Shown: positions 524 through 14,367 of the stretch, one piece after another | How positions within the stretch are numbered: position 1 is the first letter of the stretch | How the letters are laid out: each line of letters opens with the position of its first letter | IMG/VR virus record: IMGVR_UViG_2654587792_000011 | DNA length: 14,367 nucleotides | Reading direction: 5' to 3' (one strand) | Source: a virus | Taxonomy: Duplodnaviria; Heunggongvirae; Uroviricota; Caudoviricetes | Notes under the pieces: generated by a model | What the model was told of the DNA's origin: nothing | What the model saw: only the letters and a program-made list of their open reading frames with translations | The model's database searches: none | Program-made: the position numbers and the translations under genes

Positions 524-600
524 TGGCGCGTTGTACTGGATTCGAACCAGTGACCGATTGCTTAGAAGGCAATTGCTCTGTCCGGCTGAGCTAACAACGC
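524..600 (-). tRNA. argO: tRNA-Arg (anticodon UCU, reads AGA/AGG)
   Basis: 77-nt cloverleaf read by eye: GCGTTGT acceptor, GCTC/GAGC D-arm, ATTGC-CTTCTAA-GCAAT anticodon arm, ACTGG-TTCGAAT-CCAGT T-arm, encoded CCA. Confidence 0.92.
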
Positions 601-613
601 ATGATGCAGATAA

Positions 614-690
614 TGGACCGCCATCGGGGACTTGAACCCCGCGCAGCCAGCTTCGAAGGCTGGCGCTCTTTCCTGATGAGCTAATAGCGG
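614..690 (-). tRNA. argN: tRNA-Arg (anticodon UCG, reads CGA)
   Basis: 77-nt cloverleaf: CCGCTAT acceptor (one G.U pair), CCAGC-CTTCGAA-GCTGG anticodon arm, CGGGG-TTCAAGT-CCCCG T-arm, encoded CCA. Confidence 0.9.
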
Positions 691-697
691 TATGTGA

Positions 698-773
698 TGG
701 TGGCCCTTGCTGGATTTGAACCAGCGACCTGGCGATTATGAGTCGCTCGCTCTCACCACTGAGCTAAAGGGCC
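698..773 (-). tRNA. ileZ: tRNA with CAU anticodon, ileX/ileZ-like (Ile2, AUA after lysidine modification); Met by anticodon alone
   Basis: 76-nt cloverleaf GGCCCTT...AAGGGCC-A-CCA with anticodon loop CTCATAA. The body closely resembles the E. coli ileX sequence as I recall it. Confidence 0.88.
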
Positions 774-2426: not shown

Positions 2427-2455
2427 ATTGAAACAGTTTATGCGTAAAAAATCAA
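2427..2455 (-). promoter_or_regulatory. candidate PR'-like late promoter
   Basis: On the minus strand: TTGATT (2455..2450, overlapping the Q stop), 17 bp, TTCAAT (2432..2427). With the terminator at 2344 it would give a ~77-nt leader RNA, analogous to lambda 6S. Confidence 0.3.
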
Positions 2456-3006
2456 GACATTTTTTGAGCAAACGATTCTCGCATAGGGATGTATAGCGCA
2501 TATTCAGCAACAGCCAACCAATTAGCAATTCGCTTTTCGCATGTACTAAAACACCATTCCGGGTGCACCTCATTCAACAATTCAGCCATTTTGCGTTTAC
2601 TCATCCCCCGCCCTTCGTATCTTTGCCGCAGGATATCAATCAATCCAGGATAACGTGCAAGCGCTTTACTTATCACCCCATCAATGCGTAACGCCTCTGC
2701 ATCAGTACAGTGAGACAACCAGCTCTTCTGTCTGCCAGCGATCATCTCTCGCAAGAATGCTTCCAGCTCTGGTTTATCAATCCCTGACTCCCTGATTCTA
2801 CGCAGGGCTTCATTGATCGCGGTTTTTGTCAGTTTTTTGGATGTCAGCAACTGATTGAACATATTTCCTGGTTTGCCACCACCTATGTACGACCAACGCC
2901 CCCACATCCGTAATTTCCCCTGGATCCAGACGGCTTCCAGCGTTTTTAGACGTAAATGCTCGCCGCTTTTGCCTGTAATTTCCGGGTATATCATATTTAC
3001 GATCAC
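2452..3006 (-). CDS. late antiterminator Q-like protein (933W-Q type, no zinc finger)
   Basis: LRMWGRW...MFNQLLTSKK parallels the LERWGAW...FKGLITSK segment of 933W-type Q as I recall it. Has a C-terminal sigma-region-4-like HTH. GTG start at 3006 overlaps the rusA stop (GTGA); an alternative ATG lies at 2994. Position is between rusA and a promoter/terminator pair. Confidence 0.75.
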   Translation of the reverse strand: MIVNMIYPEITGKSGEHLRLKTLEAVWIQGKLRMWGRWSYIGGGKPGNMFNQLLTSKKLTKTAINEALRRIRESGIDKPELEAFLREMIAGRQKSWLSHCTDAEALRIDGVISKALARYPGLIDILRQRYEGRGMSKRKMAELLNEVHPEWCFSTCEKRIANWLAVAEYALYIPMRESFAQKMS

Positions 3007-8465: not shown

Positions 8466-8656
8466 GGACGCACCTCCGCCGTAGTTACGTATTTAACCGG
8501 GCTACCTTTCATTGAGATGGTTTCACACATCTCTGCCGCTTTCAGTTCCGCTGTTTTTCTGGATTTATAGCGACGGTGCCAGACAGATACATCCGTGCAA
8601 ACTGATACATCGTTTCTGTATTCCGTAGTGGAGATGATGATTTCGTAACTAATCAT
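8462..8656 (-). CDS. hypothetical protein (64 aa)
   Basis: ATGA overlap with the rha stop and with the next gene. No recognisable motif. Confidence 0.5.
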   Translation of the reverse strand: MISYEIIISTTEYRNDVSVCTDVSVWHRRYKSRKTAELKAAEMCETISMKGSPVKYVTTAEVRP

Positions 8657-9204
8657 GGGCGAACCTCCTTGTCAGAACCATTCAGCCTGGAATCAACAAG
8701 TGCAGCGCCAAAAACAGCATCACCAACACGGTCGTACAGTTTGCTAGCCAGCGGAGATTCAACGGCCTTAAGCATTGGATAAAGCTGGCTTGTCCAGATT
8801 TGATGGATTTCACGCAAATGCAGGTATACGCCTCTGGCGTTTCGTGCGACAGCTGACATATCAACCGCGTCAGCACCAGATAAATTCTTCTCCATCTGGT
8901 TAAAGGCGTTGATGTATGCCTCTTTGAACCGGGCTGCACGTTTGCCAGTAAAGCCCATAGCAAGGAACGCGAAGCCATCGCGGGTGATTTGATAGCAAGG
9001 TAGTTTGCGGCCTGTGCAATCGGTGTAATCACTGGGCTGAAAATTCAGCTCAGTGAATTCAACAGAGCACTCAAGCGTCTGGATTTTTTGAATAACGTTT
9101 TTGTGCTGCTTGCAGAAATATTCGGCAACGGCCAAAGAAGAGGTAACAGCCTTCCCATGGATAACATCAATTTTAGGGTGAGTTTGGGTAGGGGTGGTTG
9201 CCAT
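8653..9204 (-). CDS. rha: phage regulatory protein Rha (183 aa, shortened from the 282-aa ORF)
   Basis: The Rha signature starts right after the internal Met: AVTSSLAVAEYFCKQHKNVIQKI...ITRDGFAFLAMGFTGKRAARFKEAYINAFNQME. ATG at 9204 with GAGGA SD at 9216..9212. The upstream 297 nt carry a terminator and RNA structure. Confidence 0.8.
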   Translation of the reverse strand: MATTPTQTHPKIDVIHGKAVTSSLAVAEYFCKQHKNVIQKIQTLECSVEFTELNFQPSDYTDCTGRKLPCYQITRDGFAFLAMGFTGKRAARFKEAYINAFNQMEKNLSGADAVDMSAVARNARGVYLHLREIHQIWTSQLYPMLKAVESPLASKLYDRVGDAVFGAALVDSRLNGSDKEVRP

Positions 9205-9214
9205 AGTGACATCC

Positions 9215-9256
9215 TCATGTGCGAATTTTGAAAACTCACCACATGGGACGCCAATC
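9215..9256 (-). promoter_or_regulatory. antisense target site pair (a2/b2-like) at the rha ribosome-binding site
   Basis: Minus RNA reads GAUUGGCGUCC (9256..9246), N17, AAAUUCGCACAUGA (9228..9215). The last two nt are the first two nt of the GAGGA SD. Both halves are complementary to loops of the 9262..9340 RNA. Confidence 0.55.
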
Positions 9257-9261
9257 ACAGA

Positions 9262-9340
9262 GGTGGTGAGACGTACAGGGTTGGCGTAACCGGTCGCACA
9301 TGACCCCGGCGCATCTTTCGATGCCCCTGCACGCCCCACC
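9262..9340 (-). ncRNA. c4-like antisense RNA (79 nt)
   Basis: 10-bp closing stem GGUGGGGCGU/ACGUCUCACC leaving a 3' ACC. GAAA-tetraloop hairpin (9327..9308). Large loop carrying UCAUGUGCGA (9303..9294) and ACGCCAA (9287..9281), complementary to the flanking repeated motifs. Confidence 0.6.
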
Positions 9341-9367
9341 ATAATTTGGATGTGAGGAAACGTGCGC

Positions 9368-9390
9368 AAAAAAACCGCTGAAGCGCGGTT
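9368..9390 (-). terminator. rho-independent terminator/attenuator between the upstream target copy and the c4-like RNA
   Basis: On the minus strand: AACCGC-GCUUCA-GCGGUU followed by U5 (7 consecutive A on the plus strand at 9368..9374). Flanked by palindromic TGCGCA arms (9363..9368 and 9392..9397). Confidence 0.6.
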
Positions 9391-9395
9391 ATGCG

Positions 9396-9421
9396 CATGT
9401 GCGAATTTCAGGACGCCAATC
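9396..9421 (-). promoter_or_regulatory. upstream copy of the antisense target pair (a1/b1-like)
   Basis: Minus RNA reads GAUUGGCGUCC (9421..9411), UG, AAAUUCGCACAUG (9408..9396). Both halves are identical to the copy at the rha RBS. Confidence 0.55.
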
Positions 9422-9450
9422 CCGGCACCCGCTTTATAAGGTGCGGAGAC

Positions 9451-9479
9451 AGTGTAACGTCCCGAAATTGCAGAATCAA
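9451..9479 (-). promoter_or_regulatory. candidate promoter for the antisense-RNA cassette
   Basis: On the minus strand: TTGATT (9479..9474), 17 bp, TACACT (9456..9451). Back-to-back with a plus-strand promoter candidate. Confidence 0.3.
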
Positions 9480-9523
9480 TATTTGGTCTTGAAATGATCA
9501 TATAGCTGCTGATATCTTTAGAA

Positions 9524-9610: not shown

Positions 9611-10317
9611 CATCGCTGCCAACCAATAACCTGAAATAACCCCATTTTCGGGTGATACCAGCGAGTCCCTCGCGGTTCTGCTTCCTCCATAACCCGATAA
9701 AAAGCAGCCATAAACGGTTCCACAGCAACAATTGCGCGACGTGACAACAATCCGTCCGGCGTCATGAACTCATGTGTGTCTGTAGGAATTTGATAGGCGT
9801 TCACCAGATTGCGGCATTTATCATCTGACAAACCGGTTTTTGCTTTCAGTTGGCGATATCCGGCATAGCCCTCACGAATAGTGCCCTTTTTAATTTGCTC
9901 GACTGTTTCAGCAACGTGGCTGACTTTTTCTTCCACCTGAGTGATCCGTTTCTGTTGGCGAACGGCTTCAAGAGCCATCGCGGCAACCATTTCGATTTCG
10001 CTCATTGGCTTACGGATCTGTTCTTCCAGTTCGCGCCAGCGATCTACCAGGCGAGCTGTGAATTCAGGACAGAGCTGTGCGACGACAATGATGCTGTCGC
10101 GCTTACCTCGTTCACCTTCGAATACATACGCGCTAGAAAATCGGCGAGGCCCAAGTGATTGTTTATTCTCAATTTCCACAGTCTGTGGAAATTGGATGAT
10201 TCCCTTTTTAGCCAGTGTTTCAATAGTTCTCTTAACACTATCTGGTCGGCTTCCCACCAGCTCTGCGATCTCAACGCTGGTCATGGATGCTTTGCCGTTA
10301 AAAATTGCGGTGTTCAT
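9610..10317 (-). CDS. Rha-like / antirepressor-like phage regulator in the cII position
   Basis: 235 aa. N-terminus MTSVEIAELVGSRPDSVKRTIETLAKKG...VVAQLCPEFTARLVDRWRELE follows the Rha-family pattern. AGGAG SD. ATGA overlap with cro. Confidence 0.7.
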   Translation of the reverse strand: MNTAIFNGKASMTSVEIAELVGSRPDSVKRTIETLAKKGIIQFPQTVEIENKQSLGPRRFSSAYVFEGERGKRDSIIVVAQLCPEFTARLVDRWRELEEQIRKPMSEIEMVAAMALEAVRQQKRITQVEEKVSHVAETVEQIKKGTIREGYAGYRQLKAKTGLSDDKCRNLVNAYQIPTDTHEFMTPDGLLSRRAIVAVEPFMAAFYRVMEEAEPRGTRWYHPKMGLFQVIGWQR

Positions 10318-10604
10318 TGTTTATCTCCTGCGTGTATTCCATCCGCTCTGTGTGGTGAACTTGGATTTAGGCTTTTGCGTAACAAGTTAGGAATTCCATC
10401 TTCAGGGTGAGGATAAAGATCTGGCCTTAAGCCATGAGGCGTAACCTTCCATGCAACTACTTCACATACTCGTAAAACGAAACGAGCAGGAATTGTGCTT
10501 TTTGAAAACCACTGATTCACCGCTTGCGGCGTCACACCAAGATTTCGCGCTATGGCATTTTGCGCAATTAATGCACGAAGTTTGTCGTAATCATTTCCTT
10601 CCAT
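10314..10604 (-). CDS. cro: Cro-like HTH regulator (YdaS/Cro family)
   Basis: 96 aa. ARNLGVTPQAVNQWFSKSTIPARFVLRVCEV...LRPDLYP matches the YdaS/Cro-type HTH. Divergent from the repressor gene. Confidence 0.75.
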   Translation of the reverse strand: MEGNDYDKLRALIAQNAIARNLGVTPQAVNQWFSKSTIPARFVLRVCEVVAWKVTPHGLRPDLYPHPEDGIPNLLRKSLNPSSPHRADGIHAGDKQ

Positions 10605-10737
10605 AACAAAGCACCAATATTAACTTTATAAATCAAGAATACATCAAGTTTAAATTAACATGCAAATTACAAAAGGATCGAATACACTAAAATCAAGTAA
10701 AGATTTATCCTTGTAAAGAAACCCACAGGATTTGGTC
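10605..10737. promoter_or_regulatory. divergent PR/PRM-type control region with ATCAAG-type operator half-sites
   Basis: AT-rich 133-bp spacer. ATCAAG occurs at 10632, 10643 and 10692. The 17-mer ATCAAGTAAAGATTTAT (10692..10708) resembles the PL palindrome. Several -35/-10-like hexamers on both strands are not resolved. Confidence 0.5.
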
Positions 10738-11427
10738 ATGAAGAACGTCAAAAACACGGAAAATCGAATAGCCGCGATGCTGAAAGCAAAAGGATGGACT
10801 CAGGCTCAACTGGCCCGCAAGTTAGGTGTGAGTGCGCAATCAGTGCAGTACTGGACAACAGGAAAAACATTTCCACGGAGTGATAAGCTCGCGCATTTAT
10901 CAGAGATTAGCGGTTATCCACAATCCTGGTTCTTAGGTGAAGACTCCTCACCAACCTTTTCCTCGCAAGAGAAACACCAGACAAGAACAGATAGCGTCGT
11001 ATTTAATGTCCTTGATGTTGAGTTTAGTTGCGGTGATGGAACTCATGTCCGTGGTGACTTGATAGATGTAGTGCGCTCAATAGAACTTGATCCTGAATAT
11101 GCCCGACGTCTTGTTGGAAATCGGGCATTCAAAAATATAGAAATAGGTAACGCCAGAGGAGACAGTATGGCTCCCACAATCTCACCTGGCGACCTTCTTT
11201 TTCTTGATAAGACAGTAACTTATTTTGATGGCGATGGTATTTATGCATTTTGTTTTGATGGAGAATGCTACGTGAAAAGGCTTCAAAAAATTGGAAGCAA
11301 AATCATGGTGTTATCTGATAACCCCAATTATCAACCATGGAGCATCGAAAAAGAGGGGTTAGCTCTGCTTTATATCCAGTCTAAAGTGATCTCATCAGTA
11401 CCATTCAACATAAACAGATTTGGTTAG
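10738..11427 (+). CDS. cI: cI-type prophage repressor (XRE HTH + S24/LexA-like autopeptidase)
   Basis: HTH WTQAQLARKLGVSAQSVQYW. GDSMAP Ser143 and YVKRL Lys180 are 37 residues apart, as in LexA. Putative cleavage site Cys98-Gly99. ATG at 10738 with AGGA SD is preferred over the TTG at 10732. Confidence 0.9.
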   Translation: MKNVKNTENRIAAMLKAKGWTQAQLARKLGVSAQSVQYWTTGKTFPRSDKLAHLSEISGYPQSWFLGEDSSPTFSSQEKHQTRTDSVVFNVLDVEFSCGDGTHVRGDLIDVVRSIELDPEYARRLVGNRAFKNIEIGNARGDSMAPTISPGDLLFLDKTVTYFDGDGIYAFCFDGECYVKRLQKIGSKIMVLSDNPNYQPWSIEKEGLALLYIQSKVISSVPFNINRFG

Positions 11428-11438
11428 TCTTTGATTTT

Positions 11439-11461
11439 AACGGGCTTTGCCCGTTTTTTTT
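11439..11461 (+). terminator. rho-independent terminator after the repressor gene
   Basis: AACGGGC-TTT-GCCCGTT followed by a T-run of 8, 12 nt after the stop codon. Confidence 0.75.
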
Positions 11462-11491
11462 CTGCCTGAAATATACGATATCAATTTTTTC

Positions 11492-11520
11492 TTGACAGCC
11501 TGTTTCCCAAAACATAATAT
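11492..11520 (+). promoter_or_regulatory. PL-like early-left promoter
   Basis: TTGACA (11492..11497), 17 bp, TAATAT (11515..11520). The -35 is overlapped by ATCAATTTTTTCTTGAC (11480..11496), an operator-like 17-mer. Confidence 0.6.
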
Positions 11521-11526
11521 CGCACC

Positions 11527-11543
11527 ATCAATTATAACTTGAT
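11527..11543. promoter_or_regulatory. palindromic operator at the PL start site
   Basis: ATCAATTATAACTTGAT has perfect ATCAA/TTGAT arms and starts 7 bp after the -10 hexamer. It shares its half-site with the cro/cI intergenic repeats. Confidence 0.5.
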
Positions 11544-11573
11544 TTGATTCAATTTAAAATTGTTGGCGGATAT

Positions 11574-12122
11574 ATGAAGACACTAAAAGCAACTCCAGAA
11601 ACAACTAATTTTATCAACTGCGGCTGTGTTACGCTTAAGGGCTTAGAACTTGATTCCTTTGCATTAAATATTGCAAATTTGCTAAGTGCTGTACGCACAT
11701 TCCATCTTCTGGATTGTGCTCGCTCAAAGGAACTGGGCATTGAGGTAATGGAATTTATCCATGAATATGCTCTATCTGCTGCTTCTCCTGCACAACAAAA
11801 ACAATCCTTCCCTGAAAGCTGGCTGGTTAACCTTCGCACCCAACGCGAAGCCTGCGGCTTAACAACCGCCGAACTCGCCAGGCTGCTCGATCTCGATGAA
11901 GAAATTATCATCCAGTGGGAGAGCGGAGAGTATGAACCAACTATCAGTATGCTTATCCCACTGGCAAATATTCTTGGCTGCGATCCGATGTGCCTGTTAA
12001 CTGGTGAGGTTACTCCTCCGGAGCAACCAAAAAGTGAGGAGCAGCAACACCATGACGCATCTCAACAAGTTTGCCCCTTATCTCGCGAAGCTCTTCTGCG
12101 GAAGAACCAATACCAATGGTGA
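11574..12122 (+). CDS. first PL-operon gene: novel N-terminal domain + XRE-type HTH + disordered tail
   Basis: 182 aa from ATG 11574 (the track TTG at 11544 is less likely). HTH GLTTAELARLLDLDEEIIIQWESGEYEPT. Residues 24-70 are paralogous to the C-terminus of the 12251..12616 product. Confidence 0.7.
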   Translation: MKTLKATPETTNFINCGCVTLKGLELDSFALNIANLLSAVRTFHLLDCARSKELGIEVMEFIHEYALSAASPAQQKQSFPESWLVNLRTQREACGLTTAELARLLDLDEEIIIQWESGEYEPTISMLIPLANILGCDPMCLLTGEVTPPEQPKSEEQQHHDASQQVCPLSREALLRKNQYQW

Positions 12123-12270
12123 CATAATCGCCGCTTCGCCCTTCAAGGTACATGCGAACATTTTTATCAATCATTGCGGAAACAGTCTCAATATGAAAAC
12201 ACTTCTGAGACTCGCTATATAGCAGAACATATAAGTCAGCTGAGGAAGCCATGAAAAAGTTCGAAAACAT
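12010..12270 (-). CDS. antisense-embedded small protein (86 aa), unknown function
   Basis: GGAG (12281..12278) lies 7 nt before ATG 12270. Perfect TATAAT at 12302..12297. Globular-looking sequence (LYVLLYSESQKCFHIETV...). Fills the 128-nt gap between plus-strand genes. Overlaps neighbours by 113 nt and 20 nt. Confidence 0.45.
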   Translation of the reverse strand: MFSNFFMASSADLYVLLYSESQKCFHIETVSAMIDKNVRMYLEGRSGDYVTIGIGSSAEELREIRGKLVEMRHGVAAPHFLVAPEE

Positions 12271-12616
12271 AACTGTTCTCCATGTTGATGACTTTGATTA
12301 TACAAACCCGGAACTTCTCCCGGAGGTTGTAAAGGCAATGGATGTTGCCGATATAGTGATTAGAGAAAAGAGAATTGTCAAAAACAGGCTCGCATGCACT
12401 TCAGGAGCAATGACAGAAACAACCTCACAGCAAGATAATTACGAAGGCATTTGTCTGGAGCCTGATTCATTTGCGGTAAATGTTTATCATTTATTGCATG
12501 CAACACAGGTATTACATATGTCCAGTAATCACGAAACGAAAACACTCGGCAGCGAAATTCTGAGTTTTGCATGTGAGTATACAAAAGCTGCTGCCGAAAA
12601 AGAATTAGCGCAATAA
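12251..12616 (+). CDS. orphan protein (121 aa) sharing a domain with the HTH protein but lacking an HTH
   Basis: GAGG SD 5 nt before the ATG. Residues 69-115 align ungapped with residues 24-70 of the 11574..12122 product (20/47 identical by hand count). Confidence 0.65.
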   Translation: MKKFENITVLHVDDFDYTNPELLPEVVKAMDVADIVIREKRIVKNRLACTSGAMTETTSQQDNYEGICLEPDSFAVNVYHLLHATQVLHMSSNHETKTLGSEILSFACEYTKAAAEKELAQ

Positions 12617-12694
12617 CAACAAATATGCCCTGAACGTTTATTGCGGTTTTATCGCCGGGGATTGTTACAACCTTAATCCACAGGAGGCTTTATT

Positions 12695-12808
12695 GTGACT
12701 TTTATAAAGAATATGGCATCACACAAGACCGCCTGCCTTATTGCACAATACGGTGAAAATTACATGCATATTGCCTGCTTATTTCTGCGTAAAGCATACG
12801 GGAGATAA
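12695..12808 (+). CDS. 37-aa micro-ORF (below the ORF-track cutoff)
   Basis: AGGAGG (12682..12687) lies 7 nt before GTG 12695. Product MTFIKNMASHKTACLIAQYGENYMHIACLFLRKAYGR. Its stop is 2 nt before the next ATG, and its 3' end supplies that gene's GGGAGA SD. Confidence 0.35.
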   Translation: MTFIKNMASHKTACLIAQYGENYMHIACLFLRKAYGR

Positions 12809-12810
12809 TA

Positions 12811-13023
12811 ATGCATCAGAAAACAGCAGAACACGAACAAACCAGAATATTGCTGACCATCAAAAACGGGAAAGTAATATTCATTCTCCATGTTCATGAC
12901 GATGAACTTGTAGGAACTCTTTCAACATTCCTGTTTATTGCAGAAAAGGCAGGATATGACGTTATTGCACCAGCAGATGAAGATGAAGATGAAGATGAAG
13001 ATGAAGATGAAGATGAGGAATAA
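12811..13023 (+). CDS. 70-aa protein with a poly-(Asp-Glu) C-terminal tail
   Basis: GGGAGA SD. Compact core followed by the tail ADEDEDEDEDEDEDEE. No recognised family. Confidence 0.65.
   Translation: MHQKTAEHEQTRILLTIKNGKVIFILHVHDDELVGTLSTFLFIAEKAGYDVIAPADEDEDEDEDEDEDEE
12976..13017 (+). repeat. in-frame hexanucleotide microsatellite (GATGAA)x6 + GATGAG
   Basis: Six exact tandem GATGAA units (12976..13011) plus one variant unit, encoding the acidic tail. Confidence 0.97.
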
Positions 13024-13028
13024 ATATC

Positions 13029-13610
13029 ATGCAATACGATGAATTCCAGGCTGAAGCAACAGCCAATGGTATACGAACTGGCAGTATGACGATTGATTAT
13101 CACGACGCCATACGTCGTCTGGATGCCGGAGAATTCGATACTCCTAATGTGCGAGGTTTACGTATCCTTCAGTGTCTGGCGCAAGCCGACGAAGCAGGAT
13201 TACTGGGTAAACTTCCGGTTGAGATGAAGGTTGCTCAGTGGCGATGGTTGTATGTGACGACATTCATCAACGAAGAAGAAGACAAGAACGGCACAATTGA
13301 TATCCTGAATGAACACGGAACAACTGAACACGCCGTGGTATATAACGGGATGTATGGGTTTATGACGATATATCCCGGCCCCATTCGATTTGCCTTACAA
13401 CAGTATATTGAATGGAATTTAATTCAAAAATACGGCGAAGCTGAAGGAATGGGAAGAGCGCTGTTTCTTTATCAGAAAATGCTCACTACTTCCCCTGATA
13501 AAGGTTTCATTCTTTCAGATATGGGTCGAGAAGGGCTTGAAATCCTTCTGGATGAAATTATTAACGAAATGAATACTCATGGCATGCAATCCGAAACAGA
13601 TATTAAGTAA
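13029..13610 (+). CDS. orphan acidic protein (193 aa), unknown function
   Basis: Starts 5 nt after the previous stop, with GAGGAA upstream. No motif I recognise. Confidence 0.65.
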   Translation: MQYDEFQAEATANGIRTGSMTIDYHDAIRRLDAGEFDTPNVRGLRILQCLAQADEAGLLGKLPVEMKVAQWRWLYVTTFINEEEDKNGTIDILNEHGTTEHAVVYNGMYGFMTIYPGPIRFALQQYIEWNLIQKYGEAEGMGRALFLYQKMLTTSPDKGFILSDMGREGLEILLDEIINEMNTHGMQSETDIK

Positions 13611-13620
13611 AAGGGACCAC

Positions 13621-13806
13621 ATGACCGTTATCGAGTATATCCAGGAAAATCCAGATTGCAGTAGAGAAGATATATCCCTCGCACTTGGAAGAAGCGCAAC
13701 TTCTATCAGTAATGAATTATCACGGTTATTGTGGAATGGGTTAATAGTACGAACTGGAGAAAAAAACAAAATGATTCTGTACTGCGTAAACAATCTGCCG
13801 TTTTGA
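13621..13806 (+). CDS. small winged-helix protein (61 aa) whose stop codon lies in the IS end
   Basis: ATG 13621 lies 10 nt after the previous stop. wHTH-like REDISLALGRSATSISNELSRLLWNGLIVRTG. The TGA (13804..13806) is the first three bases of the IS terminal repeat. Confidence 0.6.
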   Translation: MTVIEYIQENPDCSREDISLALGRSATSISNELSRLLWNGLIVRTGEKNKMILYCVNNLPF

Positions 13807-13875
13807 AGTGGCACACTGAATTTGGCCACCTGAACAGAGGTGATATGCTCACCTCAGAACAACACAGGTGCTCCA

Positions 13876-14367
<492 letters not shown>

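Follow-up and report, generated by a model that had tools for sequence, protein, structure and literature searches.

What do the first genes behind the repressor of a lambdoid prophage encode, when none of their products falls into a characterised family? This question is raised by a stretch of 14,367 nucleotides (nt) from IMG/VR virus record IMGVR_UViG_2654587792_000011 (hereafter the window), which covers the early region of a lambdoid prophage and in which seven small genes lie at positions 11544-13806, between the repressor gene cI and an insertion sequence (IS). An earlier note on this DNA had described them as an orphan accessory locus at the head of the leftward (PL) operon, with domain shuffling among its members and a possible decoy circuit. 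We find that the locus is a recurrent PL-proximal module, in which a predicted helical hairpin occurs both free and fused to other domains. It is a sound experimental lead, with no demonstrated new mechanism. Our preferred reading, to which we assign a probability of roughly 0.4, is that the hairpins are portable modules, for self-association or for binding a partner, within early accessory proteins that act independently.

Position and control of the locus

The cI gene (10732-11427, + strand), coding for an S24-type repressor, is followed by the intrinsic terminator of its transcript (11439-11455, + strand; a 7-bp stem with five G-C pairs, then a T-run) and by a PL-type promoter, TTGACA-17-TAATAT (11492-11520, + strand), the best match to sigma-70 between 10300 and 13900, the stretch scanned for it. 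Two operator-like 17-mers of the form ATCAA-N7-TTGA(T/C) bracket this promoter, at 11480-11496 (ATCAATTTTTTCTTGAC) and 11527-11543 (ATCAATTATAACTTGAT). Scanning the whole window for ATCAA-N7-TTGAT with at most one mismatch returned only these two and a third at 10692, in the cro-cI intergenic region that holds the right operator (OR). Copies with two mismatches at 10613, 10643 and 11548 complete a 3+3 layout, the last of them (11548-11564) being a weaker copy just beyond the promoter/operator interval 11480-11543. The promoter 3' of cI bears the operators of OR, as in a cI-controlled PL operon of a lambdoid phage. Because a cI terminator is followed by a strong promoter flanked by cI-type operators, the locus is the head of PL, where the earlier note had placed it. 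It is the promoter-proximal part of the cI-repressed PL operon of a prophage of the phiP27/Shiga toxin (Stx) type, and is accordingly repressed in the lysogen and the first to be expressed upon derepression.

The first gene of the locus (g1) codes for a helix-turn-helix (HTH) protein, and the palindromes at PL were also considered as operators of g1 itself, a proposal that we rejected. In phages with another cI type (phiP27, CUVET17-1136, Stx1_14040, L008 and L010) a different operator, AAAGTATCAA.../TTGATACCTTAG, is found both at OR and at the equivalent promoter, and the HTH of the downstream gene is 80-95% identical throughout those phages. Since the operators vary with cI type and with OR while the HTH of g1 stays the same, they belong to cI and not to g1.

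The segment common to g1 and g3

Two proteins of the locus carry the hairpin segment, which we call X. Gene g1 (11574-12122, + strand; 182 amino acids (aa)) occupies the slot of phiP27 L10 (phrog_4836, E 5e-77) and consists of an N-terminal X hairpin (nt ~11643-11783), an XRE-type HTH (nt 11832-11987; Pfam HTH_3) and a tail of 37 aa (nt 12010-12122). Its start is most likely the ATG at 11574, used by PGAP and by all homologues and implied by the residue numbers that the earlier note itself gave; the TTG at 11544 lacks a Shine-Dalgarno sequence and is about 17 nt away from where transcription is predicted to start. Gene g3 (12251-12616, + strand; 121 aa) is the homologue of phiP27 L08 (phrog_5451, E 4e-83; phrog_4587, E 3e-28). 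It has no HTH and is composed of a small beta-alpha-beta-beta domain, Y (aa 1-48), a disordered linker (aa 50-69) and an X helical hairpin (aa 71-120; nt ~12455-12610).

The relationship between the two X segments, claimed in the earlier note, was reproduced: residues 24-70 of g1 and 69-115 of g3 align ungapped with 20 of 47 positions identical (BLASTP E 9e-10). Reciprocal profile searches matched the same residues, g1 hitting phrog_4587, a 66-aa family of X only (5e-7), and phrog_5451 (5e-6), and g3 hitting phrog_4836 (9e-4). An AlphaFold2 model of the g3 monomer, built from an alignment of 37 sequences, had a mean predicted local distance difference test score (pLDDT) of 74, with the two X helices (residues 71-89 and 94-120) at pLDDT 76-93. 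From this model X would be a two-helix hairpin and a plausible interaction module. Read from the sequence, more than half of helix 1 is hydrophobic (F73 A74 V75 V77 Y78 L80 L81 A83 V86 L87 M89), and because this is too much for a lone hairpin to bury we infer that X self-associates or associates with a different partner.

Kinship was also proposed between Y and the core of g5, the fifth gene; this did not survive comparison (BLASTP E 13; hhalign probability 0.2%). The modelled order of elements in Y is strand, helix, strand, strand, and the g5 core, read from its sequence with no model, gives strand, strand, helix, strand. Within the g3 linker, next to Met54, lies a promoter-like ATGACA-18-GATAAT (12410-12439), and PGAP starts a 68-aa X-only product at Met54 in strain RM12579. 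Judging from these sequence features, an X-only product may arise from an internal start in g3.

The HTH of g1 belongs to the XRE/Cro-C1 group by score (40.2 bits against Pfam HTH_3, PF01381, with a cut-off of 23) and aligns with the N-terminal domain of P22 C2 (E 3e-5); an MBF1-like protein is among its best sequence matches in the PDB. The domain has a net charge of -9 and an isoelectric point (pI) of 4.05. Its recognition helix reads Asp-Glu-Glu-Ile-Ile-Ile-Gln opposite Ser-Asn-Val-Ala-Ile-Ser-Gln of P22 C2, in which the aligned Ser-Asn-Val region faces the operator (C2-operator structures 2r1j and 3jxb). The Pantoea homologue has neutral or polar residues at those positions. Because the HTH is strongly acidic and places Asp-Glu-Glu at the start of the recognition helix, g1 does not have the features of a sequence-specific DNA binder and its DNA binding cannot be assumed; confidence in such binding appears lowered, though not abolished. 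In related regulators with two HTH copies the second one is similar (TYSDPINDWECG). The last 37 residues of g1 show a ratio of nonsynonymous to synonymous changes per site (pN/pS) of 1.56 and are missing where the regulator ends in a second HTH. The tail is read-through over the antisense of the next gene, which is on the minus strand, and apparently arose when DNA between two HTH repeats, each with CDPMxLLTG at its end, was deleted.

A homologous hairpin in an XRE-HTH protein and in the adjoining HTH-less protein is what one would expect of titration, the decoy or subunit-poisoning circuit proposed in the earlier note: g1 would be an early transcription factor that oligomerises via X and is switched off by mixed oligomers with g3. 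The nearest parallels are SinR/SinI and SlrR/SlrA of Bacillus subtilis, in which a small protein without an HTH has a two-helix oligomerisation element in common with an XRE-type HTH protein, and SinI binds SinR via a surface of residues conserved between both (PMC3163267). The likeness has its limits. Neither g1 nor g3 matches Pfam SinI at E<=0.1, the hairpin is N-terminal here and not C-terminal, and the interaction is putative. Both genes lie in one operon, and because they are transcribed from one promoter their ratio is not obviously controllable. The recognition helix of g1 is itself acidic, so the DNA-binding activity that would have to be poisoned is hypothetical.

Free and fused hairpins in related loci

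The products of the locus are homologues of phiP27 L06-L10 and fall, with full-length matches, into six PHROG families (4836, 6104, 5451/4587, 340, 1515 and 1687), of which two have a functional label, that of a generic regulator. Scans of the products against Pfam and NCBIfam gave HTH models only, as the earlier note had anticipated, and a literature search by protein accession and phiP27 ORF (open reading frame) names found no functional study. The term orphan is therefore apt for the lack of a characterised family and wrong for the distribution: with a megablast query that left out the IS end (including it inflated the count to 4117 genomes), the locus was found in 372 of 5426 complete E. 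coli genomes (~7%), and the module is also present in Shigella, in E. albertii and in Stx1a- and Stx2a-converting phages. Scans of GTDB with X and with g6, one genome per species, returned no locus, so the module looks rare outside prophage-rich strain collections.

To compare gene content we assembled 90 loci, 80 of them IMG/VR loci seeded with X and the rest from phages and genomes. The genes occur together in an invariant order: cI, (X or B)-HTH(-HTH), minus-strand gene, (Y)X, the micro-ORF s37, g5/L07, g6/L06 and (g7), where B is a second N-terminal domain and brackets mark parts that may be missing. Of the downstream genes, s37 is present in 88 loci, g5 in 89 and g6 in 74. Within this order alleles reassort independently, and in E. 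coli the mosaic breakpoints lie at the X/HTH border (~11832), at the junctions of g3, s37 and g5, and where g6 ends. On the three points on which the earlier note had staked its description the locus stood: no product was placed in a characterised family, the genes co-occur and X is a predicted hairpin.

By sequence comparison the shuffling is wider than first noted, with X, Y and B each occurring both free and fused. The same regulator HTH, in one or two copies, is preceded by X of clade I (the window, Stx2 phages), by X of clade II (phage ASU11) or by B, which is helical and unrelated to X, in phiP27, CUVET17-1136 and Stx1 phages. X itself is found free (63-68 aa), as Y-X and as X-HTH, and both of its clades have free and HTH-fused members; in Pantoea, neighbouring genes encode Y and X separately. 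A free B in a Klebsiella phage matches the B-type regulators (E 8e-8), and B is related to free small proteins that we call C-type (hhalign 57%, E 1e-4). B as a diverged X was unsupported (hhalign 0.2-0.5%). Other enterobacterial phages have three to five free hairpin genes directly behind PL. Tandem hairpin genes right after the repressor were seen in L093/L095 (4088-4692), L091 (4205-4692) and L010 (3798-4377); in L093 the X-HTH protein and the adjoining free X look like a local duplication, because both begin with MK(D/T)F(N/K)GLSL.

These loci weigh on the titration circuit from both sides. A regulator stands directly upstream of the X protein in 89 of 90 loci, and both X domains of the window belong to clade I (40% identity). 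Titration nevertheless predicts that the free X tracks the X of its regulator, and such co-variation is absent: the g3-type X lies behind regulators with clade-I X in 45 loci, clade-II X in 16, B in 13 and no detectable N-domain in 5. Nor do the partners co-vary as in SinR/SinI, and Klebsiella-type and several other phages have free X and B proteins and no HTH protein. The missing co-variation, the HTH-less arrays and the acidic recognition helix weaken the circuit of the earlier note, and we consider it unlikely.

The same data suggest another role for the N-domain of g1, as part of an immunity-linked switch in which X or B acts on its own cI, Cro or operators, for instance as an early anti-repressor. 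The N-domain follows cI type: cI-1 goes with the g1-type X in 45/45 loci, cI-2 with B in 15 and cI-ASU with X-ASU in 8. Recombination has its breakpoint exactly between N-domain and HTH (~11832), and an HTH-like domain that is acidic could act as a DNA mimic or form a pair with a second HTH. Small proteins are known to inactivate cI in other phages, where transcription factor-small ORF (TF-smORF) induction modules likewise pair a phage transcription factor gene with a gene for a small protein (Silpe et al. 2023, PMC10432266). In those modules the small protein and the transcription factor are not paralogous; the modules sit at other loci, in linear plasmid-like phages, and are expressed from lysogeny independently of cI, whereas the locus studied here is cI-repressed. 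The association of N-domain and cI would also be expected from physical linkage to the immunity cassette alone, and it has exceptions, cI-1 being found with X-ASU in 8 loci and with X-Stx2 in 5. We regard such a switch as very improbable.

A further proposal extends the SinI-like logic to encounters between phages. Free and fused hairpins (X, B and C-type) would form an unrecognised, fast-reassorting early class with hairpin pairing specificity, and the free hairpin of one prophage would poison or activate the hairpin-HTH of a co-resident or superinfecting phage, i.e. a trans-acting dominance. On this view it would make sense that the free X and the X of its regulator are always different alleles, and that phages lacking a regulator still carry hairpin arrays. 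We hold it to be quite improbable.

Our preferred reading, in which hairpins are portable modules of independent accessory proteins, takes the locus as an array of genes that recombine and whose small, mostly acidic products are made within minutes after derepression or infection. X, a helical hairpin of about 50 residues, would self-associate as a dimer of the four-helix-bundle type or bind a protein partner. One hairpin block is put to three uses, free, behind Y (as in g3) and in front of an XRE-type HTH (as in g1), and B is used likewise. In g1 the hairpin would most likely provide the HTH domain with oligomerisation or partner binding; g3 and the other free hairpins would act as independent small binding proteins. 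Cross-association of g1 and g3 is possible, and would not be the conserved reason for their linkage. Several points weigh against this reading. Oligomerisation by X is deduced from the composition of one helix, and the model from which the hairpin is taken is a g3 monomer, with g1 not in it. Foldseek comparison of the hairpin with the PDB returned generic hairpins only (E>1), a fold search with a bare hairpin being uninformative, and profile searches with X against PDB sequences gave no match. To call these products small proteins that bind independently says little about mechanism, because no target is named. Finally, the 90 loci are redundant, come mostly from closely related E. coli prophages and were seeded with X, so the counts given above are not independent events. 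What the analysis shows is the gene structure, the control by PL, the homology, modularity and synteny of the genes and the hairpin as a prediction; self-association, binding of proteins and every physiological role are inferred. The explanations ranked here are not fully exclusive of one another.

The other genes of the module and its setting

The count of seven genes given in the earlier note stands, with corrections to the start of the first, to the strand of the second and to the ORF taken as the fourth; the seventh is real and is not intact. The second gene (12010-12270, - strand; 86 aa) lies in the slot of phiP27 L09 and matches phrog_6104 over its full length (E 1e-49). It shares 113 nt with the g1 tail at its 3' end and 20 nt with the start of g3 at its 5' end. 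Two E. coli alleles with 77% aa identity both keep the frame open, as does a Pantoea prophage (62%). Of 64 differences, 36 are at third codon positions, and pN/pS is 0.27; only one other frame across the gene has a low ratio, and that one is riddled with stops. In phage ASU11 the gene occupies an otherwise empty gap of 220 nt. The + strand ORF at 12004-12222 was rejected as a gene (no family match, a stop in the other allele, pN/pS 1.05).

The minus-strand gene was found together with Y in 61 loci, Y occurred alone in 16, neither in 13, and the gene alone in none; because it is never seen without Y, the two look like one inserted cassette. Because the 5' ends of g3 and of the minus-strand gene overlap by 20 nt, the ribosome-binding site and any promoter of each lie inside the coding sequence of the other. 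A single CATG (12250-12253) is common to the start codon of g3 and to the internal Met7 codon of the minus-strand gene, whose PHROG profile begins at Met7. A minus-strand TATAAT at ~12300-12305 is kept among E. coli alleles, in a stretch that is also constrained by Y coding. In phiP27 the homologue is reduced to its first 36 residues, and phiP27-type alleles are cut to 45-59 codons (about ten loci, among them phiP27 itself, L006, 3994-4173, and L058, L075 and L027). Since it is shortened in these alleles, the gene seems dispensable or decaying in part of the family. We speculate that, being convergent, it could modulate read-through between g1 and g3.

The fourth gene is s37 (12695-12808, + strand), a basic micro-ORF of 37 codons with a GTG start and an AGGAGG Shine-Dalgarno sequence, which stops 2 nt from the start of g5. 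Its sequence and start codon are kept in many alleles, including that of a Klebsiella phage, and the DNA upstream diverges. The 52-aa ORF at 12741-12899 (+ strand), formerly taken as the fourth gene, has no family match and was rejected. Gene g5 (12811-13023, + strand; 70 aa, pI 4.2), the homologue of phiP27 L07 (phrog_340, E 2e-22), has a core of ~45 aa and a poly-(Asp/Glu) tail, and weakly matches the C-terminal parts of the 'anti-repressor' PHROGs 4792 and 2379. The tail noted earlier is real, encoded by a perfect hexanucleotide repeat, (AGATGA)7 at 12975-13016, and polymorphic in length: it is 8 codons shorter in RM12579 and absent from L07 alleles, which end in ...PPAKEQTL. Copy number differs between the window on one hand and RM12579 and an Stx1 phage on the other, and the tract behaves as slippage-prone. 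The exact 70-aa g5 is absent from a collection of 15 billion proteins, in which g1, g3, g6 and the minus-strand product are present.

Gene g6 (13029-13610, + strand; 193 aa, pI 4.6) begins 5 nt behind g5 and is the homologue of phiP27 L06 (phrog_1515, E 3e-90). It is predicted with confidence as an alpha/beta protein, for which neither the PDB nor the BFVD viral models held a fold relative; a profile search against PDB sequences was also without match. After another 11 nt comes g7 (13622-13806, + strand; phrog_1687, 2e-13), a MarR-like winged-HTH gene that scores below the Pfam gathering thresholds (MarR_2 23.8 bits truncated and 21.4 intact, cut-off 27; HTH_24 20.6 and 20.0, cut-off 21.9). 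An IS3-family element, whose left end lies at 13804-14367 (+ strand; inverted repeat TGAAGTGGCAC..., orfA at 13840-14178 with HTH_Tnp_1) and which is outside the module, cuts g7 after ...NNLPF; its terminal TGAAGTGG provides a TGA stop, so that 61 of 82 residues are left and 21 C-terminal ones are lost. In the uninterrupted locus of E. coli O55:H7 RM12579, g7 has these 21 residues and is followed by DUF4752 and Ea22-like genes, xis, and int at mlrA. The IS splits the PL head from the Ea22-like, xis and int genes, and a related genome has an annotated element of the ISEc52 family. The same g7-IS junction was not seen among the matches listed for the 372 complete E. coli genomes.

Apart from s37, every product is acidic (net charges -4 to -17), as the earlier note had stated for g5 and g6, and this composition has a bearing on whether the locus is an anti-defence or host-takeover array. 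Here the acidic g3, g5, g6 and the free hairpins would inhibit the defence or the machinery of the host, and the HTH protein would be a fusion of anti-CRISPR (Acr) and anti-CRISPR-associated (Aca) type that carries an inhibitor module, tunes the operon, or both. AcrIIA1 is an example of an Acr protein that bears an HTH. Aca proteins are HTH proteins, HTH-bearing Acr proteins are on record, and in such operons a conserved HTH protein has variable small early proteins beside it or fused to it (PMC9410906). The locus holds the first position of the earliest operon, its diverse small genes reassort around one highly conserved HTH, and the g5 tail is a variable poly-Asp/Glu stretch. Acidity by itself is nevertheless weak evidence. 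PADLOC, which is no dedicated anti-defence library, gave no match beyond a generic HTH, no Acr, Aca or defence family was matched, and structure searches in the PDB and BFVD found no match to DNA mimics or other inhibitors. The HTH gene is first here and not last, and the promoter is under cI operators and not under a site that tracks the HTH. We judge an array of this kind to be improbable.

The closest known system is phiP27 (an Stx2e phage, AJ298298), whose L06-L10 genes have the same order, with aa identities of 95% for g3/L08, 65% for g6/L06, 49% for g5/L07 and 77% for the HTH of g1/L10. It differs in that L10 carries B and not X, L07 lacks the acidic tail, and the ORF annotated as L09 is read in another frame and is not similar to the minus-strand gene. 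The same module is found in Stx1a and Stx2a phages of O145:H28, and PhiR49_2 has 98.5% DNA identity over the whole locus. The ORFs of all these phages are annotated as unknown, so the match gives gene names and not function. In lambda and P22 the same map position, likewise under cI/OL (left operator) control, holds the PL accessory genes N, Ral, SieB, CIII, Kil and Gam; in lambda their products are small proteins that act on host targets. Unlike in those phages, one gene of the present locus lies on the opposite strand and there is no N-like protein, and no similarity to them surfaced in the PHROG and Pfam scans. An Rfam scan of the locus gave no match.

The window also contains the rightward operon, on the minus strand and opposite in orientation to cI. 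It comprises a Cro-like gene (10314-10604, - strand), two Rha-family genes, O-like, DnaC-like and DnaB replication genes, DUF968, RusA, a Q-like antiterminator (DUF1133/Phage_antitermQ; 2452-3006), an N6/N4 DNA methylase (823-1872) and, downstream of these two, three transfer RNA (tRNA) genes, Arg(tct), Arg(tcg) and a Met/Ile2-type (cat), at 524-773 (- strand). A single 282-aa ORF at 8653-9501 (- strand) joins a Phage_ASH domain to a Phage_pRha domain that comes after it; strain CUVET17-1136 has an 'ash family' gene next to a separate Rha gene. Genes for tRNAs behind a Q-like antiterminator and a methylase are the arrangement found just upstream of stx in Stx-converting phages. The prophage may be Stx-converting or a close relative of one that is; the window ends before the stx position.

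The PL-proximal slot holds the first phage proteins that the host cell meets, and a module of seven genes without a characterised member is a well-defined target for functional work. The product of g6, with a confident model and no relative in the PDB or among viral models, is worth solving or screening. If the hairpins antagonise regulators, defence or host proteins, they would have a bearing on the induction of Stx phages and would represent a new family of small effectors.

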